A DNA stretch of 64,000 bases from Patescibacteria group bacterium (GCA_018902845.1 JAHIPV010000013.1:82766-146765), one strand, 5' to 3'. Positions 2,774-33,368 are shown, counted from the stretch's first letter. The notes: generated by a model not told the origin, from the sequence alone. Numbers and translations are program-made.

Positions 2774-4010
2774 ATTCTACTTTTGTACCCAAAGGCAGAA
2801 TTTCAACCCAAGTCCTTCCAGGCACAAAACCTATTTCTTTACCGCTACTGTTTTTAAATATTGTTCTGGCCGTCCTAGATTTTTTCGACCAGTTAATATC
2901 AATTTCTTTTCCGTTTTGTAGTAATACTCCCTTACCGCTACCTATCACTTCATACAAATTGTGTTTGTGTTCATCAATAGACCTGCTTTCTTTACTAAAC
3001 TGAATCAAAATATTTTTTGCAGTTAAAGTTTCCTCGGTATTAAAATCGATCTGTTTTTTGTCTGCGTTATATCTTTCATATTCGTTAGCTTCTTGGTTAT
3101 ATTTCCATTCAACCAAATATTCATCATCACCCCAAAATCCGAAACTGATACTTTTCGCTTCTGTACCACTATCAATTCCGTCTTCATCAAAACTCCATTC
3201 ATCAAAATCTTTATCCCATGAATTTTTACTCATCGCAGTCATGTTAGTCAAACCTCTTTCCTCGGCAACATTCCACAATTCCTCCGTAGAGCAATACATG
3301 GTATGTTCAGCCGCTCTGATCTCTCCGGTCCTTTCTTTTTCTCTTCGGCAAACTTTGTAAGACAAGGAAAACTGGCTTAAATCAGACCAACTGCCCTTAT
3401 TATTCCAACCGTAACCGGCGATTTGCTCAATTGCTTGTGCTTTGCTCTGAGTTGTACATGGTCCTGATTGCCTGCCGGTGCTTGGGTCTTTTGGTGCACT
3501 GCAGTTGGCTCCGCCCACGTGAGCATAAAGGGGATAATCTGAATATTCAGAGGCTATGTCAAGAAAGTAAGTCCTGGCTGACCTAACCGGTCCTACGTCA
3601 TAGTTTTTGCTGGCACCTCTAACGGCATTGCAATAATAAACAGCTATAAATCTTGTTATACCGCCTTCCGCTATCGCCTCGTAAACAACATCAGCATTTT
3701 GTAATCCGGATTGTGGTCGCGAATCAACATGATTTTCAATCATTACCAGTAACGGTCGTCTTTTTTCCCAAATTTCTTTTTCTTCTTTTGTAAATAATTG
3801 TCCATTAATAGGACATTTTTCAGTTTTTGGTCCTTCAAATTCCAAAACTCCTGTTATTTTTTTCTCTTCATTTTTACTTTCGTTGTCTACTTCGTCACTT
3901 TTAGCATTTTTTACCTGAGGTAAAAAATTATCAAAGGACCAATACGACAATCCGGAAAAAAATAAAAATAAACCGGCCAAAAACACAACCATTTGATTTT
4001 TTTTGTTCAT
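2760..4010 (-). CDS. Secreted DUF3048 (YerB-like) domain protein
   Basis: N-terminal TM or signal, then PLLVMIENHVDSRPQSGLQNADVVYEAIAEGGITRFIAVYY, which matches the DUF3048 N-terminal signature. Confidence 0.55.
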   Translation of the reverse strand: MNKKNQMVVFLAGLFLFFSGLSYWSFDNFLPQVKNAKSDEVDNESKNEEKKITGVLEFEGPKTEKCPINGQLFTKEEKEIWEKRRPLLVMIENHVDSRPQSGLQNADVVYEAIAEGGITRFIAVYYCNAVRGASKNYDVGPVRSARTYFLDIASEYSDYPLYAHVGGANCSAPKDPSTGRQSGPCTTQSKAQAIEQIAGYGWNNKGSWSDLSQFSLSYKVCRREKERTGEIRAAEHTMYCSTEELWNVAEERGLTNMTAMSKNSWDKDFDEWSFDEDGIDSGTEAKSISFGFWGDDEYLVEWKYNQEANEYERYNADKKQIDFNTEETLTAKNILIQFSKESRSIDEHKHNLYEVIGSGKGVLLQNGKEIDINWSKKSRTARTIFKNSSGKEIGFVPGRTWVEILPLGTKVEYASE

Positions 4011-4014
4011 TTGT

Positions 4015-4383
4015 TCAAGAAACTTTTAATGCTTTTTTAATGGCTAGCTCTTCCTCTTTGGATAAAGTAATTCCATCTGCTTTGCCATTTTTAACTCGCT
4101 TAGAATAAATTCTGGTATTTTTTCTACCATGGAGCGATGTTACTATAATACCCGAATTGTCTGAATCAAGCAAAACCAAAACAAAACTCTGATTGCCACC
4201 TAGCTCGTTAAATGGATTAAATCGATGTAAACTAACTTTTTGGATACACTTTTCTCCCAAAAAAGAGCCATTCTTTTTTTCCTTTGCCGAAAACAAAGCA
4301 TTTTTTCTTGTTTTAGCTACCAAAAAGGCTAGATAAAGCAAAGCCAGAAAATTAATAATTATCAGTAATCTGTTCAAAAGCAT
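4015..4383 (-). CDS. Hypothetical membrane-anchored protein
   Basis: 122 aa with an N-terminal hydrophobic helix. No recognisable motif. Confidence 0.3.
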   Translation of the reverse strand: MLLNRLLIIINFLALLYLAFLVAKTRKNALFSAKEKKNGSFLGEKCIQKVSLHRFNPFNELGGNQSFVLVLLDSDNSGIIVTSLHGRKNTRIYSKRVKNGKADGITLSKEEELAIKKALKVS

Positions 4384-4425
4384 TTATTTATTGTATCAGT
4401 TCTTATGCTATACTAGCTTTGAATT

Positions 4426-4638
4426 ATGGCCAAGAAAAGTAAGCGAAATAAGCAGAACAAACGAAAGCGCACTTCGCTCCCGGTAGAGAGCAGTTTTCCG
4501 AAGACAAAAAAACAATCAACGCCTGTTTTGCCCGAAGCATCCACACCAAATTACCTCAAAAAAGACCTTGTCAAAAGCTTGTTTTTGAGTTTGCTTGCAA
4601 TTTTAGCTTTACTCACTGTATATTGGACTCAGAAGTAA
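4426..4638 (+). CDS. Hypothetical small basic protein with C-terminal TM helix
   Basis: 70 aa with a Lys/Arg-rich N-terminus and a C-terminal hydrophobic segment. May be spurious. Confidence 0.2.
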   Translation: MAKKSKRNKQNKRKRTSLPVESSFPKTKKQSTPVLPEASTPNYLKKDLVKSLFLSLLAILALLTVYWTQK

Positions 4639-4659
4639 AATCTAAAATTTTAATATTTA

Positions 4660-4745
4660 AATTTTGAAATTGTTTAGAATTTAGATATTAGAGTTTAAAA
4701 TTTCAATAATTTTGGAAATTTAGATTTTAAATTTTAGATTTAACT
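4660..4745. repeat. Family D repeat cluster (TTTGGAAATTTAGATTTTAGATTT-type)
   Basis: Reiterated tagattt/taaattt units. Similar copies at 7321-7352, 7925-7960, 20455-20510, 43301-43345, 46706-46740 and 48487-48520. Three copies end 5-25 bp upstream of start codons. Confidence 0.6.
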
Positions 4746-4764
4746 TAAAAGGAGGTGGTAATTA

Positions 4765-4926
4765 ATGGCAATGATAACTTTTTATTGTGTAAAATGTCGT
4801 GCAAAAAAAGACGTAGATGAAGAAAAGTGTGAAAAGGTGACGCTTAAAAACGGCAGACCAGCGGCAAAAACCGTTTGTCCAGACTGTGGCACAGGTATGT
4901 TCAAGATTCTACCCAAAAGCGCATAA
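4765..4926 (+). CDS. Small zinc-ribbon protein, 53 aa (below the ORF-track length cutoff)
   Basis: MAMITFYCVKCRAKKDVDEEKCEKVTLKNGRPAAKTVCPDCGTGMFKILPKSA contains two CxxC pairs. A near-perfect Shine-Dalgarno aaaggaggtg sits 8 bp upstream. A terminator hairpin follows. Confidence 0.5.
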   Translation: MAMITFYCVKCRAKKDVDEEKCEKVTLKNGRPAAKTVCPDCGTGMFKILPKSA

Positions 4927-4940
4927 AATATTTTAAATTA

Positions 4941-4968
4941 ACCCCGGCTTTTAATAGACGGGGTTAAT
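4941..4968 (+). terminator. Rho-independent terminator-like hairpin
   Basis: aaccccggc-ttttaatag-acggggtt, GC stem, downstream of the small CDS. Confidence 0.4.
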
Positions 4969-4990
4969 TTGTTATTGTATAATCCTTCTT

Positions 4991-5198
4991 AAGAATAAAA
5001 GGATCAACCCCGCCACGGCGGGGAGGAAAGTCCGGACCACAAAAGGCAAAAAAAGCTCTGCTACAGAGACGAGAAATGTGAAACGAGTATCTTTTTTGTG
5101 GAAATCTCAAAAATGAACGTTAATATCTAGCCTTTGAGAGTTCAAGGTAGAGAGAGTAGATAGATGATCCATAAACAAAATCCGGCTTATTTATTCTT
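4991..5198 (+). ncRNA. rnpB: RNase P RNA (rnpB), unusually small (~208 nt) with a reduced specificity domain
   Basis: P1 aagaataaa (4991-4999) pairs perfectly with tttattctt (5190-5198). P2 ggatc pairs with gatcc (5166-5170). P3 hairpin ccccgc-cacg-gcgggg. CR-I motif GGAGGAAAGTCCGGAC at 5024-5039. CR-V-like ACAAAATCCGGCTTAT at 5175-5190. The 3' part tagatagatgatcc...aaatccggcttat parallels E. coli M1 RNA CTAGATGAATGAC...AACCCGGCTTAT. Confidence 0.55.
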
Positions 5199-5208
5199 TT
5201 GTAAAATT

Positions 5209-6201
5209 TTATTTCTTTTCTTTCCAAAAAACCTTTATCAGAGTTTCAGTGGTCAAATAAGCCGGTATTGCCAAAACCGCCCCTGATATTCCCGCTAGCT
5301 TTGCTCCAATTGCTAATAAAAATATCGTTACCAAAGGATTCAGTCCTACCGCCGTTTTCATCACTTTTGGCACAATAAAATTATTTTCAATTTGTTGTAC
5401 AGTTATTCCCCAAACCAAAGACAATAAACCCAAAACAGGGGACATGGAAAAACCTATTATCATCGCCACTATAGTCGCAACGGTTGGTCCAATATTTGGA
5501 ACCAATTCCAATATTCCTGCCAAAATAGCCAATGGTACGGCAAATTGCAAACCAAGAATCAAATAACCAACATAAGATAACAATCCGACCGCCAGCATGA
5601 GAATCAGTTCTGCGTTAACCCACGAACCCAGTCTTTTTTCCAAGTGTTCCATTATTTTCATCGTTTTCTGGCTTCCTTTTTTGCCAAAAAGGTCAAGACT
5701 GTATTTTTTGAATTTCTTTCTTTCTACCAAAAGATAAAAAGTTATCATCAAAACCAAAAAACCGGAAAAAAGGTTAGAAAAAACTGACAAGGTGGCTTTG
5801 GTAATATTGGCCGGCAAATTTTCTAATATTTTTAACTGAGAAGAGATATCCATTGCCGACAAACCAAAAAAGTTTATTTCTTCTATTAACCTCGGAAAAG
5901 AATTAATCAGTCCTGTTGTTTGTTCTATTAATACCGGAATCACTCCGGCAATTCCAAAAGACAAAAAAGTTAACATGATAATATACAAAAAAACTATCGC
6001 CACTCCTCTTGGTATCTTAAATTTTTCTAATCTCTCCACGGTTGGATTAAGAGATTCCATCAGAATAAAACAGATAAAAAACAGTACTAGCAATTCTCTG
6101 ATTTTCCACACCAACAGCAAAGAACCCAAAAAGATAACAGCAAATATTATTGTTTTGTGTGAAATTTCAATTTTATGTACTTGTTTTTCTTCTTTTTTCA
6201 T
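5209..6201 (-). CDS. AI-2E family transporter (PerM/UPF0118)
   Basis: 330 aa multi-TM protein. LGSWVNAELILMLAVGLLSYVGYLILGLQFAVPLAILAGILELVPNIGP is typical of PF01594. Confidence 0.7.
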   Translation of the reverse strand: MKKEEKQVHKIEISHKTIIFAVIFLGSLLLVWKIRELLVLFFICFILMESLNPTVERLEKFKIPRGVAIVFLYIIMLTFLSFGIAGVIPVLIEQTTGLINSFPRLIEEINFFGLSAMDISSQLKILENLPANITKATLSVFSNLFSGFLVLMITFYLLVERKKFKKYSLDLFGKKGSQKTMKIMEHLEKRLGSWVNAELILMLAVGLLSYVGYLILGLQFAVPLAILAGILELVPNIGPTVATIVAMIIGFSMSPVLGLLSLVWGITVQQIENNFIVPKVMKTAVGLNPLVTIFLLAIGAKLAGISGAVLAIPAYLTTETLIKVFWKEKK

Positions 6202-20290: not shown

Positions 20291-20400
20291 TCCAGCCTCG
20301 CCATCTTTTGACAATCAAAATTTTATTTTTCTCTTATTTTTTTATTTTTCAAAAATTCCCTAGTCCGCCTTTGGCGGATAAATTTGTGATTTGCTTTCCC

Positions 20401-20520
20401 CTTCCGTCATCCTGAGTGAGTTTTACGACCGAAGGATCTAGCGAAGCGTTTTTTTTGGAAATTCTTTAGTCCGCCTTTGGAGGAAGAATTTCGGATTTGG
20501 GATTTAGGATTTATTAAAAA
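20401..20520. repeat. Composite repeat: family A, family C (tagtccgcctttggcgga) and family D units
   Basis: ccgtcatcctgagtgagttttacgaccgaaggatctagcgaagcg, then ttggaaattctttagtccgcctttggaggaagaatttcggatttgggatttaggattt. Confidence 0.6.
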
Positions 20521-20539
20521 TTTCCCGCTCCCAGCGTGG

Positions 20540-20665
20540 TCGGCATTGTACCGAAAAATTCGAACTATATATATGAAATTATAACACTCGCCCCGCACGC
20601 TGTGCCTGTCCGCCTGTGGCGGAGGCGGTCGGCACGGCGAAAACAGCGGGGCTCCGCCGACGCAA
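20540..20665. repeat. IR-A left copy; its reverse complement is 27681-27804
   Basis: tcggcattgtaccgaaaaattcgaactatatatatgaaattataacactcgccccgcacgctgtgcctgtccgcctgtggcggaggcggtcggcacggcg matches the reverse complement of 27700-27804 with about 2 mismatches. Similarity decays over the outer ~20 bp. Confidence 0.85.
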
Positions 20666-20844
20666 AGCTATGGCGGACACAGTCGATTGAAAATTATTTT
20701 TTGCGCGCGCGATTTTTCAAAAACGCAGAATCATCGAAAAACTTTGTCAGTATATTTTTCTTAAATTTGACTACACTCCTACTGTCACTTTTAATGATAA
20801 AAGCTCTGCCTATAATATTTTGCTAACAGATTCAATCAAATCTC

Positions 20845-21504
20845 TTACTTGATATCGTTTGTCCGACATTCGATATAAAGATTCTTCACTAATTTATCTA
20901 GTTTCTTAAACCTACTTTTTGCTAGTTGACCTATTTTCTTGAAGTGATATTCACTCAATTGGCTAAGGGCAATTGGTCTTCCTTTTTTGCTCCAATATTC
21001 AAACATGCCATCTAAATTACGTTCCCTATGTTCATTAAATGCGATGAGACGAATTAAAAGCATTATTCCACTATTATCTAACCTATCTGCATCCCAGATT
21101 ACATATGATTCAAATTCAGTTAGGTTATTTCCATGGTGACCACCAATTATTCTGCTGATCTTTTTTATTAAATCACTGTTACCCACGTATTTACCTAAAT
21201 AATCTGCAATTATTTTCTCTCCAACTTCATCGTGTTTGAATTTTTCATCATCATAGCCTTCCATAAATTTCATATCATTAACTTTATGTATTTTACCAAT
21301 GTCATGGAATAAGGCAGCGATCAATAAAGCGTCTTTGTTGACATTTTTATTCTTTAAAAAATCCATTTCACAAAAATGTTTACAATAATTAAACACTCTG
21401 ACACCGTGATCTAAGCGGTATTCATATCCTGTGTATTCTTTTACACCTTTAAATACTCTCGTATATTTTTTTATTAAATCATCGTAATTAATGCTATTGC
21501 TCAT
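20845..21504 (-). CDS. HD-domain phosphohydrolase
   Basis: LLIAALFHDIGKIH, IIGGHHG, WDADRLD. Confidence 0.65.
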   Translation of the reverse strand: MSNSINYDDLIKKYTRVFKGVKEYTGYEYRLDHGVRVFNYCKHFCEMDFLKNKNVNKDALLIAALFHDIGKIHKVNDMKFMEGYDDEKFKHDEVGEKIIADYLGKYVGNSDLIKKISRIIGGHHGNNLTEFESYVIWDADRLDNSGIMLLIRLIAFNEHRERNLDGMFEYWSKKGRPIALSQLSEYHFKKIGQLAKSRFKKLDKLVKNLYIECRTNDIK

Positions 21505-21516
21505 ACATACCGGACT

Positions 21517-22554
21517 TTAATTAAAAGACGATCCTCCAGGAAACCATAAGCCTTCGGTTTCGTCAAAGCCATTCATTAAATTATAATTTTGTATAGCCTG
21601 TCCCGCCCCACCTTTAATTAAATTATCAATCGCGGCAAGAATAACGATAAATTTGTTCTTAGCGTAAACTGAAATGTCAATGAAATTTGTACCAGACACA
21701 TTTCTAATCTCGGGAGAAACGTCTCTGAATCTCACAAACGGTTCGCCTCGGTAGCGTTCGGTAAAAATATTTTTTATTTCTGATGTGGTTACTGTCTTAT
21801 CTGTAGTTATGCACATACTAGCCAACATACCTCTTTTCCACGGCCCAACATGCGGGATTATTGCAGGTACTAACCGTACTCCTGTCTTGTCATTAATAAA
21901 CGCAACTATTTCATCTTCGTGCTGATGGGTAAAAACTTTAAATGCTCTATAGTTTTCATTCCTAATAGGGAAATGCGTGCCATAAATTGGTTCTGATCCG
22001 GAGCTGCTAGCCCCGCTACTAAAATTGATACAAAGGTTGTTGATGTTGTATTTTGATAGAACTGGAAATAATCCCAACTGAATGACTGTAGCGGCACAGC
22101 CAGGATTTGCTATCTTTGTGGAGCTACATATTGTTGTTCTGTTTATTTCCGAAAGACCATAGACAAATTCATTATTAACCAGTGGGTGTTGGATTGATGG
22201 CCTAAAAAAAGATCCCAAATCAATAATTTGGATGTTTACATGTTCTGTCTTTGCTGACTTTATTATTGTATTGATTTCATCTTCTACGATATCAGAAGGG
22301 AATATTGAAAATATCGTCAAATTATCGTTTTTGTATTGATTAAGATTCTTTAGGTTTTCACTAAACTTGATATCTGTAAAACTCTTCAGGCGCGGATGAA
22401 TATCTGAAATAAATTTTCCAGGATTACTATGGGATGTTACTTGAACCACGTCAGTGAACTTGTGTAACAGTAGTATACTAAGTAGTTCACCTGCTACATA
22501 ACCAGATCCACCACATATAACAACTTTTCTTTTTTTCATATTCATAGAAATCAA
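21517..22554 (-). CDS. ArgC/LysY-family semialdehyde dehydrogenase (N-acetyl-gamma-glutamyl-phosphate reductase-like)
   Basis: KVVICGGSGYVAGELL is the Rossmann motif. ANPGCAATVIQLGLFPV is the catalytic Cys motif of the ArgC type. C-terminal NLIKGGAGQAIQNYNLMNGFDETEGL. Confidence 0.6.
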   Translation of the reverse strand: MISMNMKKRKVVICGGSGYVAGELLSILLLHKFTDVVQVTSHSNPGKFISDIHPRLKSFTDIKFSENLKNLNQYKNDNLTIFSIFPSDIVEDEINTIIKSAKTEHVNIQIIDLGSFFRPSIQHPLVNNEFVYGLSEINRTTICSSTKIANPGCAATVIQLGLFPVLSKYNINNLCINFSSGASSSGSEPIYGTHFPIRNENYRAFKVFTHQHEDEIVAFINDKTGVRLVPAIIPHVGPWKRGMLASMCITTDKTVTTSEIKNIFTERYRGEPFVRFRDVSPEIRNVSGTNFIDISVYAKNKFIVILAAIDNLIKGGAGQAIQNYNLMNGFDETEGLWFPGGSSFN

Positions 22555-22579
22555 ATAGTTGTGATATTATAGATAATAT

Positions 22580-23545
22580 ATGCATCAAAATATAGATACA
22601 ATAAACAATTTGATTGGTATCTTCAAGAAGAGGTTAGCAAGACAGTTTGGTCAAAGTCTGGTGCTTTTTGATATCACTGCTTACCAAAACAAAGGTGAAG
22701 TTATTCTTAATGGCGAGGTGGGAACTGTCAAATTAAAGAATAAATTTATGGGCATAATTAACAGAAAAAAGATAACTGTAACTGATAATATTAAAACTTT
22801 ATCAGACCCAAAAGATCATCTGGAAAGTGGTTGGGGTAAATCTCTTATAGATCAAAACACATATAGGTCTACAGAAGAGCAGCCGAAGCTAGCGACACAT
22901 GTTTTAAGTGGTGAAACATTTCGTGTCCTGAAGCAAATTAGTGGTTGGTATTTAGTTCAGTTAGAGGACTTGTCTATGGGATGGATCCGCATACCAAACA
23001 AGGATTGTGTTGTGGTTTTTAACGATAAAATCCCAGAATATCGTGAATTTTCAGACCGTTGGCAGAAAGTTCCAAGAGTAAACTCTACTAGATTACAGTT
23101 TGTCTTTCCAGATCAGGAGACACTAGAGAGGAAATTAACAGATATATTTTCTACATATATGGGAATGCCATATATATTTGGTGGACGTTCACCTAAATTC
23201 GGTTTCGATTGTTCCGGATTGATCCAGAATATTATTTTCAAACTTGAGAATGTTCTTTTACCTAAAAACAGTTTGGACCAAATCGTACTTGGAAAAAAAG
23301 CCAATATAAAAGCATTTGATAAAAACCAATTCAAAATTGGTGACATAGTTTTTATTAGGATCAGAAAGAAGATCCCTCATAGTGGAATAGTGACCAGTCA
23401 GGGCATTTTGCATGCAGAAGGTTTAAATCAAAAAATAGTTCTTATCGATAGTTTTGAGGATATTGCTAATCCAGCTAAATTTGCTCATCAATGGCAAAGA
23501 GATTTTGGTAAAGTAGTCCGGTTTTTTCGGTTTCAAAATGACTAG
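22580..23545 (+). CDS. NlpC/P60-family peptidase with N-terminal SH3-like domain
   Basis: YIFGGRSPKFGFDCSGLIQNI carries the catalytic Cys. HSGIV carries the His. An upstream region is SH3b-like. Confidence 0.6.
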   Translation: MHQNIDTINNLIGIFKKRLARQFGQSLVLFDITAYQNKGEVILNGEVGTVKLKNKFMGIINRKKITVTDNIKTLSDPKDHLESGWGKSLIDQNTYRSTEEQPKLATHVLSGETFRVLKQISGWYLVQLEDLSMGWIRIPNKDCVVVFNDKIPEYREFSDRWQKVPRVNSTRLQFVFPDQETLERKLTDIFSTYMGMPYIFGGRSPKFGFDCSGLIQNIIFKLENVLLPKNSLDQIVLGKKANIKAFDKNQFKIGDIVFIRIRKKIPHSGIVTSQGILHAEGLNQKIVLIDSFEDIANPAKFAHQWQRDFGKVVRFFRFQND

Positions 23546-25221
23546 AACCTAACAGGTGGCATAATATCTCTATTAGAGATTATATCTATAACCGATGGTA
23601 CTTGGTTTTTCAATATTGTATTTACTAATTCACTGTTAAGGTTGTTCAAGTTGGTTATTCTATATCCAGCCGCACCAAGTGATCTTGCCATTGTGTCAAA
23701 CCTCGGTTTTGTACTGTAGAAATTTGCACTGCTTGTAAATCCGGTTTGAACCTGACCATGGTGAATTGCCGCCAAACCATAATTGTTAATAATTATCCAT
23801 ATAATCGGTAATTTATACTCAACTGCTGTGTGCACTTCTGTACCATGCATAAGGAAGCTTCCATCACCAACGATAGCAACAACAGGTTTATTAAGGGCAA
23901 AACTTGCACCAATAACACCAGCAGTAGCATAACCCATTGGTGAAAATCCTCCACCTTCAATAAAAGTATACGGGGTATTGAACTCCATTCGGTTTATGGC
24001 CCATGCTCGAGGTGTGCCAGCGTCAACAATAAAAATAGTTTTATCGTCGAACAAGAAACGGACTTTATCTATAACCATACCAGGATCAAGGCCGGATTTG
24101 TCGTATTTTTTGTTGAGGATTTCACACTTATCGTAGTATTTACTTTTAAGTTCTAAATTTTTCTTAAGGGCAGTATCCGTTGCTCGTAATTTGATCCTAT
24201 TATTCATCTCTTTTAGAATTACTTTAATATCACCAAGCACACTTATCCCGACCTTCAGATTTTTCCCAAATGAGGCAAAATCATTATCAATTTGGATAAT
24301 GAAGCTGTCTCTTAGATTGTCACACCAAAGGTTCGTTGACCATGAACCGAGTCTTGAACCGACAACTAATACTATGTCAAACTTCTCTTTATTTAATAAA
24401 TTATTTGCTAAACATGAACCTGCATGTCCTATAGTTCCGAAGAATAGTTTGTTTTTGTTTGCAAAGCAACTCTTTGCCTTGCTAGTAGTTACCACAGGTA
24501 CGAATAATTTGTTTACTAATTCTCCAAATTCATCGACTGCCCTAGAAGCTAAAACTCCATGTCCACCAATAACTAAAATCGTTTTTGCTTTGGAAATTTT
24601 ATCTACAGCAGCGCATATATTTTTTTTACTTTCATCTAGTAAATAATTGTTTTCAGATAACTTGCAACTTGGGAGATTCTTCGTTTGTAGGACACTGACA
24701 TCTGAAGTAATTATATTTACAGGTAAGGATAAAAATATAGGCTGTTTCTTGTCATTTATTGTATTGACTGTTTGAATTAGTCGTTTGACCGCATTTTTTG
24801 GATTGGTACATATCAAACTTTGGTTGATTACCATCTTATACATTCCAACGACATTAATAGACTTTGGATCTGAACTCTGAAACACATCTTTACCAAAATA
24901 CTTTGTATTTACCTCACCCGAAATTATCAGAAGGGGTGTAGAGTTGGATTTTGCCATGGCCAATGCTGTTCCTAGCCCTGTGGCACCAGGACCAGATGAT
25001 ACAAGACACACACCAATTTTACCTGATACTCTCGAATATACCTCGGCCATGTAGCCAGCACCTAACTCTGATTTAGCAAGAACAAATTTAATTTTTTTTG
25101 ATTTACTTATATCTTCAAGTATTGGTTTAATAGGAGCACCAGGAATTCCAAACACATATTCGACCCCTATGTTTTCCAGTAGACTTACCAAAACTTCACT
25201 AAACTTCTTTTTTAGAATCAT
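23542..25221 (-). CDS. Thiamine-diphosphate-dependent enzyme (acetolactate synthase large-subunit family)
   Basis: N-terminal ThDP pyrimidine-binding domain (GIPGAPIKPIL...ELGAGYMAEVYSRVSG...SGPGATGLGTALAMA). C-terminal GDGSFLMHG Mg-ThDP motif. Confidence 0.7.
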   Translation of the reverse strand: MILKKKFSEVLVSLLENIGVEYVFGIPGAPIKPILEDISKSKKIKFVLAKSELGAGYMAEVYSRVSGKIGVCLVSSGPGATGLGTALAMAKSNSTPLLIISGEVNTKYFGKDVFQSSDPKSINVVGMYKMVINQSLICTNPKNAVKRLIQTVNTINDKKQPIFLSLPVNIITSDVSVLQTKNLPSCKLSENNYLLDESKKNICAAVDKISKAKTILVIGGHGVLASRAVDEFGELVNKLFVPVVTTSKAKSCFANKNKLFFGTIGHAGSCLANNLLNKEKFDIVLVVGSRLGSWSTNLWCDNLRDSFIIQIDNDFASFGKNLKVGISVLGDIKVILKEMNNRIKLRATDTALKKNLELKSKYYDKCEILNKKYDKSGLDPGMVIDKVRFLFDDKTIFIVDAGTPRAWAINRMEFNTPYTFIEGGGFSPMGYATAGVIGASFALNKPVVAIVGDGSFLMHGTEVHTAVEYKLPIIWIIINNYGLAAIHHGQVQTGFTSSANFYSTKPRFDTMARSLGAAGYRITNLNNLNSELVNTILKNQVPSVIDIISNRDIMPPVRF

Positions 25222-26029
25222 AATTCTTTTTCGAGCAACTTTATTATGTTATTTTGATCTTTATGTTTGTATCCCGAAAATACTTTTTCTGTTAAATCAA
25301 TTAATGGAAAACGACCGTACTTTCGTGTAAATTTTTTTATCATGGCAGTATCTTTTTCTCTGATGTCAATACATTCACTTGGAGTAATTTGTTTGGTCAG
25401 TATACTGTTAATGTTTCTTTTCCACACCCAATAAATATTTGTCAATATTCCATCTAGTAAAATTTTTTGATGTCGTTTATTTAATTTCAACAAATTAATC
25501 AATCTCAATATCTCAAAAGATATGATCAAGTTTGTATATCTTGGTGTATTTCTCAACAGTTTTAGTGTTGATGCTGAACCCACATCGCCGGTATAAACGA
25601 TATGTTTTGAAAATAATTTGAGTAAAGGCTTCATTCTTCTATAAACATTGGGAGCTCCACCTACCTCCAAGTGTAAAATACCAAGTTTGGCATCATTTTC
25701 GCGTCCTTTTATGGGAGACTCCAGGTAAGAGACTTTCTTTTTTTTACATATTTGAGTATGCCATTTTTCCCAAAAATAACTTCTTTTGATACTCTTGGTA
25801 GAGGCAGGCATATAAAAAATACTTTTGCACTTTGTGCAATACTAGTTAAATCCGGGCAAGCTATGCAACTGTCACCAAATTCTGACTTTAATTTGTTAGA
25901 TTTTGCTTTATCTTTATCAAAAACAAATATGGAGCTACTAGTATTTTTGATGATGTTTGAAGCAATACCATATCCCATTCTTCCAAGGCCTATAACTCCT
26001 ATCAGAAAGCTGTCCTTATTCATTTTCAA
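25218..26029 (-). pseudogene. 3-hydroxyisobutyrate/6-phosphogluconate dehydrogenase-family oxidoreductase split by a frameshift in a T8 homopolymer
   Basis: ORF 25709-26029 carries the NAD-binding IGVIGLGRMGYGIASNI. ORF 25218-25811 carries the C-terminal HIBADH-like HLEVGGAPNVYRRMKPLLKLFSKHIVYTGDVGSASTLKLLRN. The two overlap out of frame around the poly-A/T run at 25735-25745. Confidence 0.5.
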
Positions 26030-27611
26030 GTAATTCCTTTAATACCAAATAATCATTAAACGGTATTTTTTCAGAACCTATTTGTTGGAGGTTGTGATGA
26101 CCACTGCCTAAAACAATAATTAAATCTCCCGGATGTCGTATTTCCAAAGCTTTTTTAATTGCCAACCTTCTGTCGGGAATTGTAATAAATGCGCTATTTG
26201 ACTTTATAACACCTTCTTTAATTTCCTTTACTGCAACATCAACTGATTCAAGTTTAGGGTTATTAGTGGTTATCACAACGATATCAGCTTTTTCCCCAAT
26301 CACTTGTCCCATTAGTCGCCTCTTTTGATTTTGGCCATCCCACTCTCCTCCATAAACGGCAATGACTCTTCCTTTGACGAGAGATCTTGATAAATTGAGT
26401 GATTCGGACAATGAGCTCTCATTGTGGGCGTAATCAACCACAAATACAGAATCGTTCTTCTCGATGATCTGGTATCTACCAGGAGGAACCGTGATTTCGG
26501 GTAGTACTTTGACAATGTTTTCTATAGATACTCCCATCTCGGCGGCCGCTAGAATGGCCGCTAAACAATTCTGTACCTGAAAAGCACCCATTAAATTAAT
26601 TTTAGTTTGGTATGATGCTCCGTTAATCGTAAAACAAAAAATAGTTCCCCGAAGTGTTTCAATTATTTCTTCGGCGTAGAGGTCGGCCATTTTGTCTTTG
26701 GTGCTAAATGTTAATACTTTAAGATTGGATGGGAAGATCTTGTCTTGGCCTAATGTAGAATCGTCCTTGTTAGTAACTATAAAACCGCCACTTTTAATTA
26801 GATCACCCAAATGTTTTTTTGTAGCTAGGTACTCTGCAAACGTACCATGGTAGTCGATGTGATCGTTGGAGATATTCGTAAAAATCGCCCCAGTAAACAT
26901 AGAGGAGTCAACTCTTTTTAGCGCTAAATCATATGAGTTCACTTCCATGACTACGGCATTTTTACCTCCGTCCGCGTCAAGACGAATTCTTTCAACAATT
27001 CTATTTGCCTCCAGTATCTGGCTATCCGATTTAACACCAGTAAACGAAAATAATGCGCCACTTGTGTAAGAACCAAATGCATCTACTTGTTTACCGCAGA
27101 GTTTTAGTATAGAAGCAAGCATCCAAATTGTACTAGTTTTTCCACTCGATCCAGTAACACCTATAACAGAAATCTCTTTTGAGGGGAAACCAAAGTAATA
27201 ATTCGATATTTTTGCAACCGCTTCTCTAGTATCTTTAACTTGAACTTGTGGGATATTTATACCTTCTTGCAACTCAGAAACTATACAGCATACCGCACCT
27301 TGTTGTTTGACGTCTTGTATAAACTTGTGACTATCAAAATTTCTTCCTTGATTTGCTACAAAAATAGCATTCTGTTTGACTTCTCGCGAATCAAAACATA
27401 TATCACTAACTTCCACCCCATTTATTGATTTATCGAAAAATACCGTATTAACAATATCGTCGCTAAGATATTTAAGAATATTTCCTACTTTTTTTTTGCT
27501 TAATAGACATTTACTTTTATCGTTCAAATATAATTTTTGTGCATTATACAGCAATTTTATCACTATCCATTTTAAATGGATCACCAAAAACGGTCTGGCT
27601 GATAACATCAA
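26016..27611 (-). CDS. murE: UDP-N-acetylmuramoyl-tripeptide ligase MurE-like (Mur ligase family)
   Basis: VIGVTGSSGKTSTIWMLASIL P-loop. DYAHNESSL corresponds to the Mur ligase DxAHNP motif. Three-domain architecture. The true start is probably an internal Met or TTG. Confidence 0.7.
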   Translation of the reverse strand: MMLSARPFLVIHLKWIVIKLLYNAQKLYLNDKSKCLLSKKKVGNILKYLSDDIVNTVFFDKSINGVEVSDICFDSREVKQNAIFVANQGRNFDSHKFIQDVKQQGAVCCIVSELQEGINIPQVQVKDTREAVAKISNYYFGFPSKEISVIGVTGSSGKTSTIWMLASILKLCGKQVDAFGSYTSGALFSFTGVKSDSQILEANRIVERIRLDADGGKNAVVMEVNSYDLALKRVDSSMFTGAIFTNISNDHIDYHGTFAEYLATKKHLGDLIKSGGFIVTNKDDSTLGQDKIFPSNLKVLTFSTKDKMADLYAEEIIETLRGTIFCFTINGASYQTKINLMGAFQVQNCLAAILAAAEMGVSIENIVKVLPEITVPPGRYQIIEKNDSVFVVDYAHNESSLSESLNLSRSLVKGRVIAVYGGEWDGQNQKRRLMGQVIGEKADIVVITTNNPKLESVDVAVKEIKEGVIKSNSAFITIPDRRLAIKKALEIRHPGDLIIVLGSGHHNLQQIGSEKIPFNDYLVLKELLENE

Positions 27612-27680
27612 GCTATTTGAATATTGGAAATTTTTAGAACCAAATATTACTAAAATTTTTGCGTTACGAGCCGACAGTTT

Positions 27681-27804
27681 TGTTCAATCGAGCCCCGCGT
27701 TTTACGCCGTGCCGACCGCCTCCGCCACAGGCGGACAGGCACGGCGTGCGGGGCGAGTGTTATAATTTCATATATATAGTTCGAATTTTTCGGTACAATG
27801 CCGA
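27681..27804. repeat. IR-A right copy (reverse complement of 20540-20665), directly abutting IR-B
   Basis: See IR-A left. Reading the minus strand through 27895-27681 gives continuous R2-TCGG-R1. Confidence 0.85.
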
Positions 27805-27895
27805 CAATTCATGAATGTTCTGATTTTTTAAAGTGGCGCAGGCCAAACTCGCACCGTTGGCCAGCGCCAAGAATCCGTCATTTTGAAATTTTGGG
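27805..27895. repeat. IR-B left copy; its reverse complement is 29340-29430 (91 bp, identical)
   Basis: caattcatgaatgttctgattttttaaagtggcgcaggccaaactcgcaccgttggccagcgccaagaatccgtcattttgaaattttggg is the reverse complement of 29340-29430. It encodes the same peptide RPKFQNDGFLALANGASLACATLKNQNIHEL on opposite strands. Confidence 0.9.
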
Positions 27896-29339
27896 CGTAC
27901 AATAAAAGTAGTTATAGAAACGCAAAAATTTTTATGAAGTACGTTGCTTACTGCCGTAAATCTACTGATGAACCTGATCGCCAAATTCTTTCAATTGAAG
28001 CTCAAATTGCCGAAGTAAAAGAATTCGCCCAAAGAGAAAACCTAGAAATTGTCAATTTTATTATCGAAAGTCGCACCGCTCGAAAGCCGGGTCGACCAGA
28101 ATTCCAAAAAGTGTTGCAAATGCTTGAGACTGGCAAGGTTGGTGGCATCATTTCATGGCATCCGGATAGGCTAGCTAGAAATTCAATCGATAGCGGTCAA
28201 CTGATATATCTTCTAGACATTGGAAAACTACTTGATTTAAAGTTTCCAACTTTTTGGTTTGATAACACTCCCCAAGGCAAATTTATGCTTAATATCGCTT
28301 TTGGCCAATCCAAATATTATGTCGATAACCTGTCCGAAAATGTAAGGCGCGGAATAAGGCAAAAACTCCGCAGGGGTGAATGGCCATCAAAAGCTCCCTT
28401 TGGTTATCAAATGGATTCCACCAAAAAGTTGATAGTTGACCGTAAAACTGGTAAATATGTTAAACAAATTTTTGAAATGTATGCCACCTGTCGGTATACA
28501 TATGTTGATTTGCAAAACTTTTTGTTCGATCACAAAATTTATTCTAAGCATGGTAATAAAATCGACATTGGTACATTAAAACGAATTCTGATCGACCCCA
28601 TCTATTACGGAACAATGAAGATGAAGGGCGAATTCTTTTAGGGAGTCCATAAACCCATCATCACCAAGAAACTTTTTGACAAAGTTCAAACGGTAATCAA
28701 TCGTAAATCAAAAAATTATTTATCCAACAAAACTGATTTTCACTTCTTAGGTCTAGCCACCTGTGGCGAATGTGGCTCGTCCATTACCGCTGAAAAACAT
28801 CGTAAGCATTACTTGCGTCGAAACATTGATGTTGATTACCACTATTATCGGTGCAGTAAGAAGAAAATGCCATGTCATCAATCATATCTACCATCATCAA
28901 TATTTGAAAATCAATTAAGACAAATAATTTTTAAGGCTTCAATATCACCATTTGTCGCCAAAAAGTTTCTTGATTGGGCTAGTGATGATGTTAATAGTGA
29001 AACCCAAAATACATCAGATGAGATTAATACCCTATCTTCGGCAATTTCAGATACAGATTCCAAACTTAATAATCTTCTCGATGGTTACATTGATAAAACC
29101 ATCGATCCACTTGATTACCAAAGAAAGAAAAACGAATTAATTCAATATAAAGTTACCACCGAGGAGAAAATCAAAGAAATTAATACCAATGGTTCGAGTT
29201 GGCTCGAACCATTTACGGAATTTGTTAATAGTGCGCTACTAGCGCACAAAATCGCGCGTGCAAAAAATAATTGCACCGATTTACTAATCGGTGCCAAAAC
29301 TGTCGGCTCGAACTACTTTTTATTGGATAAAACAATACA

Positions 29340-29430
29340 CCCAAAATTTCAAAATGACGGATTCTTGGCGCTGGCCAACGGTGCGAGTTTGGCCTGCGCC
29401 ACTTTAAAAAATCAGAACATTCATGAATTG
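29340..29430. repeat. IR-B right copy, ending exactly at the 3' end of tRNA-Pro
   Basis: See IR-B left. The junction reads gaattgTCGG|ggatacaggattcgaacc. Confidence 0.9.
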
Positions 29431-29504
29431 TCGGGGATACAGGATTCGAACCTGCAACCTCACGCACCCCATGCGTGCGCGCTAGCCAATTGCGCCAATC
29501 CCCG
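29431..29504 (-). tRNA. tRNA-Pro (anticodon GGG)
   Basis: Minus-strand fold: acceptor CGGGGAT/ATCCCCG, D-stem GCGC/GCGC, anticodon stem CACGC/GCGTG with loop ATGGGGT (U33, anticodon GGG, G37), T-arm GCAGG-TTCGAAT-CCTGT, discriminator A. CCA is not encoded. Confidence 0.75.
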
Positions 29505-29526
29505 AGCATTTCTATTATATCTCAAC

Positions 29527-30774
29527 TTATCTCAAAAAATCACCCAACTCGATCAATTTCACATTAGCCGAAAAATCTTTTATTTTTTTTAAAATATTCA
29601 TAGAAACAACATTTATTTTTTTATTAATAAAATCATACCTTTCCAGTATTTTACCATCCAGTTTCATCCCTGTTTTTACTTCAAACAAACCATCTTTGCA
29701 TTCAAAATCAATCTCCAGGTCGTCAAAAATTTCATAATATATTCTATATTTTTCTCTTAACGACTCTCTCCTTAATAATTCAAGGAAAACCGCATTTTCA
29801 ACCAAATGTCCTATCCTTGGTCTAATACTCATCAAGCTTAACACTCCTGTATCGTTAAAATAATATTTCGGATTTGATGATCTACTTATTCGATTAGATC
29901 TTCCTTTGCGATACACGGGATAAACAAGATATACCGATTCCAAGTATTTCAAATAAAATTTGGCTGTTTCATCATCTATTTTCAAGTCTTTCTGAATTCT
30001 CTTTGCGCTTACAGGTGTTGTAATTTTATCAGCCAAATAATAAAGCAAATCCTCCAGAATAACAGGATTTCTTATTCCATAAAGCGACAGAAGATCTCTA
30101 TACAAAGTAGACTCAATTGCTTGTTTTAAATATGTTTGATTATTTTTTAAAACAAATTCAGGATAACCGCCTTTTTTCAAATATTCCTCAAGTAAGTTTT
30201 TCTTTTTATTTTTAGAAAGTCTGGAAACAACCACTCCGTTAAAATTAAGAAATTCAGAAAAACTCAATGGCAATATTTTTTGCAAAAAATATCTGCCAGT
30301 CAATTTGCTGGTTTTTTGCGTCAATATCAAGCTGGAAGATCCGGAAATATAAAACTTTATCTTAGTGTGGTCATACAAAGTTTTTAGATCTGACTGCCAG
30401 TTATCAAGCTCTTGAATTTCATCTACCAATATGTGCAAAGAATCACCGATTTTACATTTATTTAATTTAATTACATCAGTAATTATTTGCCTCAATCCTG
30501 CTTCTTTCACCTCTCTCAAATCAGCGCTCAAAAAAATGATTTTTTTAGGAGATATGCCATGTTTTAACAAGCGGTTTACAACAGAATAAAGAATATATGT
30601 TTTTCCAACCCTTCTTGCTCCAATAAGTATGTCTATTAGTCGATCTTTTCTGTCCATAATTTCTCTCAAATAAGCTGGCCTGTTAAAAACATCATACTTA
30701 AACGTTTTTTTCTCCCACCATGGATTTAATGTTTCTATAAAATCAAAGTCAGTTCTTACATCCATACTACTCAT
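29527..30774 (-). CDS. AAA+ ATPase of the AAA_14/DUF4143 family
   Basis: LIGARRVGKTYIL Walker A. LHILVDEIQEL Walker B. The C-terminal half is DUF4143-like. 415 aa. Confidence 0.6.
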   Translation of the reverse strand: MSSMDVRTDFDFIETLNPWWEKKTFKYDVFNRPAYLREIMDRKDRLIDILIGARRVGKTYILYSVVNRLLKHGISPKKIIFLSADLREVKEAGLRQIITDVIKLNKCKIGDSLHILVDEIQELDNWQSDLKTLYDHTKIKFYISGSSSLILTQKTSKLTGRYFLQKILPLSFSEFLNFNGVVVSRLSKNKKKNLLEEYLKKGGYPEFVLKNNQTYLKQAIESTLYRDLLSLYGIRNPVILEDLLYYLADKITTPVSAKRIQKDLKIDDETAKFYLKYLESVYLVYPVYRKGRSNRISRSSNPKYYFNDTGVLSLMSIRPRIGHLVENAVFLELLRRESLREKYRIYYEIFDDLEIDFECKDGLFEVKTGMKLDGKILERYDFINKKINVVSMNILKKIKDFSANVKLIELGDFLR

Positions 30775-32455: not shown

Positions 32456-32764
32456 ATGAACAAAACACAGCAAAAATATTTAAAAAATTCAGATAAATAC
32501 AAACAACTGGTTTGGGAATACAACATTTCTCCACAAATTTTTTTTAACATACTAAATGGCAAGGAAACCCAAAAGTGGTTTAACAGGCAATGGGCCACAA
32601 CAAAAGTTTTAGAAAATGCCACTTACTATGACGCAATAAATCTTATTGATATGGATTATCTAAAAAAAAACTGGAATATTATAAAATCTAGAATTTTTAA
32701 CAAAAGTATAAAAAATGGATATCAATTCGTACTACAAAAAAAAGCTCTATCCTCTTCAAGATAA
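32456..32764 (+). CDS. Putative AbiEi-like antitoxin (small protein overlapping the AbiEii gene)
   Basis: 102 aa, overlaps the downstream NTase toxin gene by 50 bp. Call is by position only. Confidence 0.3.
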   Translation: MNKTQQKYLKNSDKYKQLVWEYNISPQIFFNILNGKETQKWFNRQWATTKVLENATYYDAINLIDMDYLKKNWNIIKSRIFNKSIKNGYQFVLQKKALSSSR

Positions 32765-33368
32765 AGTTTTAAAAATTTTAGACAAACTAAAAAGCCCCTT
32801 TTATTTAACGGGTGGCACGGCTTTATCTCGTTGTTATTTTAATCACAGGTATTCCGATGATCTGGATTTATTTCTAAATGATAATCCAAAATTTAGAGCA
32901 AATTCAGAAAAAATAATAAAGGAATTAAAAAAAATCTTTAAAGTCCAAATAATTACAAAGGCAGACAAATATTACTCACTCCAAATTGACAAAAAACTTA
33001 AAATAGACTTAATAAACGACGTAGCTTCATACATTGGTAAAACCAAAAAAACTCCTATATATTCCAAAGTCGACAACCCGGTTAATATTTTTTCAAACAA
33101 AATTTCAGCCCTTATAAGCAGAGACGAACCCAAAGATGTAGTGGATATTTGGATTATTTCCAAAAATCAAAAAATTGACTGGGAGCAAATTTTTATAGAC
33201 ACATCATCAAAAGCAATAGGTATTTTTCCGCCAACAGTAGCCCAAAAATTAGACACATTTCCAATTGATCTTATAGATAAAATAAATTGGGTCAAAAATA
33301 ACAAACCTGCAAAAAACTTATTTAAAACAGATATGCAAAAATTAATTCTGGATATTTTAAAGATTTGA
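32715..33368 (+). CDS. AbiEii/AbiGii-family nucleotidyltransferase toxin (DUF1814)
   Basis: FYLTGGTALSRCYFNHRYSDDLDLF matches the family motif (GGTAL...R.S.DLD). Confidence 0.6.
   Translation: MDINSYYKKKLYPLQDKVLKILDKLKSPFYLTGGTALSRCYFNHRYSDDLDLFLNDNPKFRANSEKIIKELKKIFKVQIITKADKYYSLQIDKKLKIDLINDVASYIGKTKKTPIYSKVDNPVNIFSNKISALISRDEPKDVVDIWIISKNQKIDWEQIFIDTSSKAIGIFPPTVAQKLDTFPIDLIDKINWVKNNKPAKNLFKTDMQKLILDILKI

Follow-up and report, generated by a model that had tools for sequence, protein, structure and literature searches.

The locus and its nested repeats

The stretch of DNA considered here (the window) comprises 64,000 nucleotides from a Patescibacteria group bacterium (GCA_018902845.1, JAHIPV010000013.1:82766-146765), and all positions are counted from its first letter. 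The part of interest is a candidate mobile element beside a tRNA-Pro gene, in which a serine recombinase gene lies within one pair of long inverted repeats, IR-B, and a 7-kb cargo segment lies within another, IR-A. A preliminary description, made from the sequence alone, had drawn attention to these nested repeats; they are real, and a repeat search corrected their coordinates only slightly.

IR-A consists of two inverted arms of 116 nt (20539-20654 and 27690-27805) that are 97% identical, and the similarity resumes for 7 nt (GATTGAA, 20685-91 and 27683-89) past a 30-nt insertion in the left copy. IR-B has arms of 99 nt (27801-27899 and 29336-29434) with one mismatch; its perfect stretch measures 95 nt including the core described below, that is, the 91 bp first reported plus TCGG. 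All other inverted repeats of the 12-kb region are at most 31 nt long and at most 96% identical, which places IR-A and IR-B beyond chance.

Here, we will refer to the arm sequence of IR-A as R1 and that of IR-B as R2. R1 occurs on the plus strand at 20539..20654 (reaching 20691 after the insertion), where it carries AAAAATTCGAAC at 20554-65 and a GC-rich internal hairpin, and on the minus strand at 27690..27805, with the 7-nt extension at 27683-89. R2 occurs on the minus strand at 27801..27899, as an inverted copy of the last ~33 codons of the recombinase gene plus the core, and on the plus strand at 29336..29434, where it is also the coding sequence for the C-terminus of the recombinase. The outer ends of the element, R1 on the left and R2 on the right, have no repeat in common, each pairing instead with the internal site, and "transposon with long terminal inverted repeats", one of the labels initially considered, is therefore inexact.

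The arms meet at three junctions. At site A, the core gTCGG (20539..20543, plus strand) stands between the flanking sequence, X, and R1 (X|core|R1); at site B (27801..27805), the minus strand reads R2|gTCGG|R1; and at site C (29430..29434, plus strand), the core joins R2 to the tRNA gene (R2|core|tRNA), its TCGG being the discriminator and the last three acceptor-stem bases of tRNA-Pro. Side-by-side alignment confirmed the shared TCGG noticed at the outset, with gTCGG as the core common to all three. On the minus strand, the left side of junction B agrees with junction C without a mismatch for 95 nt, and its right side agrees with junction A for 61 nt until the first mismatch, while A and C have gTCGG alone in common. 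The claim that the middle junction is an exact left/right chimera of the outer two therefore holds, and the view that site-specific recombination at a short shared core produced all three is supported.

Repeats of this kind raise the question of a collapse or mis-join during assembly, and many related contigs do break at the inverted-repeat arms (Logan contig L004, for example, ends within IR-A). However, the arrangement is base-identical in three independent assemblies, namely the NCBI metagenome-assembled genome (MAG) GCA_018897325.1 and two ENA MEGAHIT k141 assemblies, and a collapse or mis-join is excluded because k = 141 exceeds the repeat length. More than 70 unrelated loci, which come from numerous projects and assemblers and include complete genomes, also have the same architecture, so that the probability we attach to an artefact is negligible.

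The recombinase gene

The gene starts with the ATG at 27934 on the plus strand and extends to 29592. Its product has Resolvase, Recombinase, and Zn-ribbon domains (PF00239, E=1.2e-22; PF07508, E=1.4e-12; PF13408, Zn_ribbon_recom, E=2.3e-7), and the family profile matches the SPbeta integrase (9dxh) over residues 4-461 (E=9e-19); the enzyme is therefore a large serine recombinase (LSR), as first described. At ~500 aa with LSR domains, it is not a small invertase of ~190 aa with a C-terminal helix-turn-helix (HTH). Across 30 homologues, residues Y6, C7, R8, K9, and S10, together with R79/R82, are invariant, as are four cysteines in the homologue alignment (C277, C280, C307, and C314); the alignment also suggests that a coiled coil is inserted in the zinc-ribbon domain.

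The preliminary description was right to place this gene between the arms of IR-B, but the gene itself required correction in two respects. The first is an in-frame TAG at 28639-41, where the nearest homologues have Gln (GEFYQGVHKP), which points to a CAG to TAG nonsense change. TAG is an ordinary stop in this genome (it terminates 8 of the 31 long open reading frames (ORFs) of the window), and the same TAG is found in all assemblies of the locus. To judge from these features, the recombinase copy in the window is dead and the element is decaying; the other signs of decay are a frameshifted dehydrogenase gene in the cargo and the mismatches in the inverted repeats.

The second correction concerns the end of the gene, whose frame continues without a stop across R2, the core, and the strand antisense to the tRNA as far as 29592. 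Full-length homologues (about 500-525 aa) align across the part encoded by R2, which is therefore real C-terminal coding sequence, and the C-terminus of most homologues, "...DSN...", is the antisense translation of the tRNA T-arm. Two T-arm-like motifs, GGTTCGAG and TGGCTCGAACC, also occur inside the coding sequence (29191..29210, plus strand).

A family of elements in Patescibacteria

A protein search for the recombinase gave more than 7000 matches, almost all in Patescibacteria, the ultra-small CPR bacteria. The survey sample comprised 83 genome-contig loci, out of 575 relatives in reference genomes, and 80 metagenome loci, from another 574 relatives in metagenomes. IR-B flanks the recombinase gene in 68/83 genome and 67/80 metagenome loci (135/163), with a median length of 101 nt and 97.5% identity, and the loci without it are mostly contigs terminating at the recombinase gene. 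In 41 genome and 30 metagenome loci (71 elements), IR-A (median 105 nt, 98.9% identity) abuts IR-B via a core of 2-17 nt. The cargo enclosed by IR-A ranges from 556 to 9344 bp, its content being unrelated between elements, and the targets include at least 13 types of tRNA, with which R2 overlaps by 4-10 nt.

Two relatives with intact recombinases illustrate how the framework is retained while the cargo changes. L009 (recombinase 78% identical) sits at a tRNA-Pro with the core gTCGG, and L010 (71% identical) at a tRNA-Gln with the core AAAAACTGTTAC; both have the same nested repeats and unrelated cargo. In one locus, L017, two complete elements lie inside a single tRNA cluster.

All-against-all clustering of the cargo revealed no conserved directionality factor, the only candidate being an XRE-type HTH regulator in 12/69 loci. 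A phage origin was considered and rejected, as IMG/VR contained only 2 true relatives, both at contig ends. There were no circular contigs in the metagenome survey. Identical proteins in differing contexts were sought as a sign of recent mobility, but the two candidates, P0070 and P0048, each occur in one context only.

Several cases are unusual. At L062 (348-5694), one element is seemingly inserted in the recombinase gene of another, with two nested perfect inverted-repeat pairs, a partial gene copy at 508-876, and a gene match split over 3064-5610. In three loci (L112, L176, and L179), R2 abuts only a 3' fragment of a tRNA (T-arm plus acceptor end) with no whole tRNA gene, and in five others (L049, L085, L089, L109, and L114), the abutting sequence has a degenerate T-arm or none; such targets may be secondary or pseudo-sites. 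Family members are also found in MAGs labelled Ignavibacteriota, Methylomirabilota, Bdellovibrio, and Marinimicrobia (L067, L068, L073, and L082), which could mean a wider host range or errors in binning or labelling. Many "uncultured Gammaproteobacteria" labels among the family loci are clearly wrong.

Attachment-site geometry

The nature of the half-sites can be read from the position of a single motif. In every locus, (A)AAATTCGAAC is found ~14-17 nt from the internal core on its outer side, and the tRNA T-arm motif GGATTCGAACC (at 29442-52 in the tRNA-Pro of the window) lies ~9-11 nt from the core. Measured on TTCGAAC, the offset of R1 minus tRNA is +4 or +5 bp in 39/40 genome and 25/25 metagenome loci (64/65), a comparison that covers the right-hand half-sites only, the left ones (R2 and X) being degenerate. 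In serine integrases, attP half-sites have the motif of the zinc-ribbon domain 5 bp further from the crossover than attB half-sites do (PMC3783163). The observed offset matches this rule, which makes R1 a P'-type arm and the tRNA a B' arm; site A (X|R1) is therefore attL and site C (R2|tRNA) attR, with R2 as the P-type half-site, and site B (R2|R1) forms a complete attP that runs opposite to the two outer sites.

We thus think it likely that positions 20544-29430 are an integrated, decaying LSR element with an attL at site A, an attR at site C, and a second, inverted attP at site B. The borders of the insert are hybrid, having only the short core in common with each other and with attP (gTCGG in the window, 2-17 nt in the family). 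The initial suggestion of an integrative element at tRNA-Pro is supported, the element being integrated at the 3' end of this gene, but the accompanying idea that the att sites were later duplicated and inverted is not: the internal inverted attP is constant and inherited throughout the family, and therefore not a secondary accident at the window locus.

Short repeats that co-vary with the gene

Two shorter inverted repeats connect the recombinase gene with the ends of the cargo. At the left cargo end, 20692..20716 (minus strand) is an inverted 25-nt copy (24/25 identical) of gene segment a (29248-29272), and at the right cargo end, 27667..27682 (minus strand) is an inverted 16-nt copy (16/16) of gene segment b (29295-29310). 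On the plus strand of the gene, hairpin g (29231-47), segment a (29248-72), hairpin h (29273-94), and segment b (29295-310) follow one another directly. In the family, the a copy (15-27 nt) is found just inside the left IR-A arm in 32/41 genome and 24/30 metagenome elements, its gene segment lying ~65-108 nt upstream of the R2 arm, and the b copy (16-28 nt) just inside the right IR-A arm in 37/41 and 23/30, respectively, its gene segment lying ~16-53 nt upstream. Within an element, the copies are ~100% identical to the gene, whereas between elements they differ, largely at synonymous positions.

The stem of hairpin h varies by element, yet 80% of cells are paired and 10 of its 11 pairs change on both sides. 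Its covariation score is 0.336, compared with at most 0.138 for slid controls, and 0/500 shuffles reach 0.336. For hairpin g, only 45% of cells pair in a single register and the register shifts between subgroups, so we make no claim for it. The T-arm-like GGCTCGAAC occurs both at an upstream site (29200-10) and in segment b (29302-29310) in two different reading frames (W-L-E-P and G-S-N), and this conservation suggests that, besides the protein, the DNA or RNA sequence itself is under selection.

A leader motif, ACGCAAAAATTTT, lies immediately before the recombinase ATG (27920..27932, plus strand), and a mirror copy (27652..27664, minus strand) heads the cargo unit. In the family, 51/71 elements have the motif ahead of the recombinase start and 54/71 have it in mirrored form ahead of the cargo genes, compared with 9/71 in control windows, and it faces outward on both sides of site B. 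The element is thus made up of two units that diverge from a common attP in the middle. An att arm and the inverted copy of that arm enclose each unit, and every arm comprises a half-site and a GC-rich hairpin.

One might ask whether R1, R2, a, and b, the four pairs of interlocking inverted repeats, serve a folded single-stranded form of the element, either single-stranded DNA (ssDNA) after uptake or a long RNA, or, in another version, a nucleoprotein complex of three sites, with the internal attP taking the place of a directionality factor. Such a role would suit the identity of a and b within elements and their divergence between elements, synonymous sites included, all the more as these segments are probably too short for upkeep by gene conversion; the covariation of hairpin h within coding sequence, the similar median lengths of the IR-A and IR-B arms (105 and 101 nt), and the lack of a directionality factor among the cargo genes point the same way. 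Serine recombinases, however, act on duplex DNA via concerted double-strand breaks, no conserved replication or ssDNA-processing gene was found in the elements, and the pairings cross each other, hence no simple fold results. Antisense-RNA control of the recombinase could also account for a and b without an exotic form of DNA. We regard a single-strand or multi-site function of the four pairs as very unlikely.

Orientation of the two segments

The preliminary description had also raised the possibility of a recombinase-driven invertible cassette. In such a switch, the recombinase would flip the 7-kb cargo and/or its own gene in the manner of Hin or Gin and so vary expression. The resemblance is obvious, given a serine recombinase gene between near-perfect inverted repeats and a second segment between another pair, and the hin gene likewise lies inside its invertible segment. 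The polarity of the surveyed loci nevertheless speaks against it. A tRNA was called next to the recombinase gene in 120 loci. In 117 of them, it lies downstream only, that is, the gene reads toward it, and the three exceptions involve a second or an upstream tRNA (on either side of the gene in L065 and L175, and only upstream in L079). The marks at the cargo ends, with the a copy on the left and the b copy on the right, show 0 swaps in 71 elements; the XRE-type regulator, where there is one, adjoins site B and is divergent from the recombinase in 10/12 loci; and neither segment is flipped in any consensus assembly of the surveyed loci. The enzyme, moreover, is a large serine integrase rather than a small invertase, and the site pairs required would be attL x attP and attP x attR. 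An invertible switch is, therefore, extremely unlikely.

Two further ideas were discarded. As evidence of inversion, contig breaks at the inverted-repeat arms are uninterpretable, because short-k assemblers break there anyway. A palindromic central dinucleotide, which would enable "wrong-way" excision of each segment, is not general, as cores such as TCAC and CACA are without one.

L065 (9796-11582) and L175 (9706-11531) deserve separate mention. Here, the recombinase unit lies between two inverted tRNA genes for the same amino acid and with the same core (Glu UUC/CUC and Gln CUG/UUG, respectively), with attR-type junctions on both sides. As far as the sequences allow one to judge, the two loci look like cassette-exchange or inversion products of the internal attP, and they are the products expected if site B recombines with the attB of a second tRNA.

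Evidence for insertion as one unit

The element could alternatively be a composite of two separately mobile modules, a recombinase unit (R2rc...R2, where rc denotes the reverse complement) and a cargo unit (R1...R1rc), each with terminal inverted repeats of ~100 nt and, when circular, a palindromic attachment site. In that case, the recombinase would mobilise the cargo as a cassette that cannot move autonomously, similar to an integron cassette or to a MITE beside its IS. Several features would suit such a composite. Both units hold the same cis set (leader, hairpin-preceded segment a, and segment b), and in both, a and b flank a palindrome, which is hairpin h in the gene and R1rc...R1 in the cargo. 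In addition, the cargo is highly variable (0.56-9.3 kb), and in L065 and L175, two tRNA genes enclose the recombinase unit on its own.

A comparison with an empty site speaks for one unit. In L012, the sequence ...tcgtaatatttg-GTGC-tRNA-Leu(GAG) runs without interruption, and this is the cross-species counterpart of element 2 of L017, where R1-cargo-R1rc|R2rc-LSR-R2 lies between "...ttcgcaatatga-GTGC" and "GTGC-tRNA-Leu". This supports the arrival of the cargo, the internal site, and the recombinase there as one insertion, and this sole empty site among the genome-contig loci examined lacks both units together. Furthermore, none of the ~135 loci with IR-B has a recombinase unit without an R1-type arm on its left, and a palindromic R2|R2rc or R1rc|R1 junction was not seen in the surveyed loci. 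Because R2|R1 is attP-type on its R1 side, two modules would also need attP x attL-like or attP x attR-like reactions, which known LSRs do not perform (PMC3783163). On balance, separately mobile modules are distinctly unlikely.

Two related candidates were rejected as well. In every locus examined, even where no IR-A was detected, R1-like sequence adjoins the left IR-B arm on its outer side, and this disposes of a recombinase-only module with a palindromic attachment site. R1 is not detected by the family HMM (hidden Markov model) as a relic of the tail of a second recombinase gene; the only signal there is a marginal KIARAKNN fragment (E=0.19), which is the a copy.

A proposed mechanism and the points against it

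On our preferred reading, that of an integrated LSR element with an inverted second attP, the recombinase would recombine attP with attB and so place the element at a tRNA 3' end, the crossover falling at the discriminator and acceptor end. In the B' half-site, the enzyme most likely reads the tRNA T-arm (GGTTCGAAyC), and in the P' arm (R1), it would read the same motif 4-5 bp further out. Site B would be the second attP, inverted, between the divergent transcription units of cargo and recombinase, and the nested inverted repeats would follow from the occurrence of both the P and the P' arm in two copies. If sites A and C recombined to excise the element, two inverted copies of attP would separate the cargo from the recombinase in the resulting circle, and integration would use only the attP downstream of the gene. 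The internal attP may act as a recombinase-binding control region between the two units; its position between two identical leaders suggests that site B is also the operator of the recombinase. Occasionally, the internal attP may be live and capture a second tRNA gene. The parts of this proposal that can be read most directly from sequence are the half-site geometry, the family-wide architecture, the insertion as one unit relative to the empty site of a relative, the fixed polarity, and the decay.

Several points weigh against this proposal. With two identical attP sites in the circle, both orientations of integration are expected, and as the mirror form is essentially never seen, there must be some bias. 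The host chromosome should be put at risk by an intact attP beside an integrase that is expressed. At ~100 nt, the arms exceed the 50 bp that an att site requires, and the co-varying short pairs a and b are not accounted for by the model. The absence of a conserved directionality factor, with the XRE-type regulator confined to 12/69 loci, counts here too, as does the lack of sigma-70-like promoters around site B, where a consensus scan gave neither sigma-70 promoters nor intrinsic terminators. An exact X|TCGG|tRNA string, the empty site of the window locus, had 0 matches in the metagenome collection, which is uninformative. Finally, there is no unambiguous circle: L069, a 4.6-kb contig with a 51-nt terminal overlap, the order LSR-R2|R1-cargo, and no tRNA, fits an excised circle but could instead be a repeat-induced assembly path, and it has a 10-N gap at site B.

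The inverted attP, repeats a and b, and hairpin h might together form a higher-order structure, either a three-site synaptic complex or a folded single strand, a proposal that we consider rather unlikely. If true, the family would have a novel organisation for a serine-integrase element; such a structure would control directionality or site choice in place of a separate directionality factor, and it would explain why polarity is fixed and why all four pairs of repeats evolve in concert.

Cargo genes and surroundings

The preliminary description counted six genes in the 7-kb segment between the IR-A arms; the segment stands, but one of the genes is frameshifted. From left to right, the cargo encodes an HD protein (20845-21504, minus strand), ArgC (21517-22554, minus; TIGR01850 above the cut-off), an NlpC/P60 peptidase with SH3 (22580-23545, plus), an acetolactate-synthase-like (ALS-like) thiamine pyrophosphate (TPP) enzyme (23542-25221, minus), the frameshifted NAD-binding dehydrogenase (25218-26029, minus), and MurE (26016-27611, minus; NF001126 at the cut-off). 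The genes from 21517 to 27611 resemble a coherent cell-wall or amino-acid module (MurE, ArgC, the TPP enzyme, the dehydrogenase, and the peptidase), which might supply an alternative residue for the peptidoglycan stem peptide. No Pfam match to a tyrosine recombinase (phage integrase) was found among the six cargo proteins and the recombinase.

The tRNA-Pro(GGG) gene, which provides the B'-type half-site, was called by ARAGORN at 29430-29504 on the minus strand (Rfam, 60 bits), and Rfam recognised no other known RNA family in the element. On the minus strand, X continues the tRNA as CCCCGA-CCA-CGCTGGGAGCG-GGAAATTTTT, that is, an encoded CCA followed by a terminator-like hairpin and a T run, as expected of a native tRNA trailer. 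Integration has replaced the encoded CCA of tRNA-Pro by CAA, the CCA trailer now being at site A (20530-20543); with its encoded CCA gone, the tRNA would depend on CCA addition after processing.

The small GC-rich hairpin GTCCGCC-N3-GGCGGA is strongly over-represented in the window, with 19 matches versus 0.15 expected. It is found in several intergenic spacers (positions include 13743, 20363, 20469, 20608, 27721, 50199, and 62988), often near repeats of the type "gtcattgcgagg...cgaaggatc", and also in the centre of R1. Two 49-nt direct repeats (20345-20393 and 20451-20499, 80% identical) in the spacer between copA and site A each contain this hairpin; they may be remnants of earlier insertions or simply intergenic repeats of an ordinary kind. 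Beyond tRNA-Pro lie an AAA_14/DUF4143 ATPase gene and then an AbiEii-type nucleotidyltransferase pair (29527-30774 and 32456-33368), and this neighbourhood suggests a general hotspot for accessory or defence genes.

Significance of the family

Although the window copy is a decaying relic, it reveals a family that may be among the commonest types of mobile element in the Patescibacteria, a large and poorly understood group of bacteria. The cargo includes metabolic and cell-wall genes (MurE and ArgC), restriction-modification systems, and regulators, and therefore bears on gene exchange among reduced genomes. The family also offers a large number of compact natural serine integrases, and their attP and attB follow directly from the genome sequence, with three sites per locus. 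Because attB includes the near-universal tRNA T-arm, these enzymes are of interest for integrase-based genome engineering. A retained internal attP and short repeats that co-vary with the integrase gene are unusual and are not predicted by current models of directionality; their function could reveal a new form of control.

Comparison with known systems

The preliminary description did not recognise the arrangement as a described element type, and this judgement stands, as the literature searched contains no description of it; "inverted attP" appears there only for engineered landing pads. The closest enzymes are the phage-type LSRs (phiC31, Bxb1, A118/LI, and SPbeta), which have the same domain architecture and, in the case of the SPbeta integrase, detectable homology. 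The likeness extends to the short junction core, the hybrid flanking sites, and the ~5 bp shift of the zinc-ribbon motif between P- and B-type sites. Characterised LSRs mostly target protein-coding genes, whereas this family targets tRNA 3' ends via the T-arm. Its elements are also tiny (about 2-11 kb) and non-phage, the recombinase ORF crosses attP, a complete inverted second attP is retained, and there is no identified directionality factor.

Tn4451/Tn4453 (TnpX) and Tn5397 (TndX) are small non-phage LSR elements with a circular intermediate and no known separate directionality factor. They resemble the family in being small, non-phage, and moved by an LSR, a comparison drawn from general descriptions of these transposons and the shared LSR domains; to our knowledge, they lack both an internal copy of the joint and ~100-nt repeats, and they are not specific for tRNAs. 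Hin, Gin, and Cin likewise have a serine recombinase gene flanked by inverted repeats, but these small invertases act on short sites (~26 bp) together with an enhancer, and the two orientations occur side by side, whereas the family has an LSR and att arms, and no inversion was seen.

The predicted excised form, a circle split by two inverted sites, has the geometry of the yeast 2-micron plasmid (FLP/FRT) and of inverted-attP landing pads. In the 2-micron plasmid, however, a tyrosine recombinase recombines two identical sites, whereas attP x attP recombination is not expected in the family and no flipping was seen. The landing pads used for cassette exchange are man-made, and it is the products of such exchange that L065 and L175 resemble.

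Integration at tRNA 3' ends is shared with tRNA-targeting islands, tycheposons, and archaeal integrative plasmids, as are occasional rearrangements between tRNA genes (PMC5495485). These elements use tyrosine recombinases and rebuild the tRNA from long direct repeats, whereas only 4-10 nt are common in the family, and in the window, the encoded CCA of the tRNA is replaced by CAA. Taken together, the LSR enzyme family and the logic of serine-integrase integrative elements are already known; what is apparently new is the combination of tRNA targeting via the T-arm, a tiny non-phage format, an ORF that runs across attP, a constant inverted attP, and interlocking co-varying repeats.

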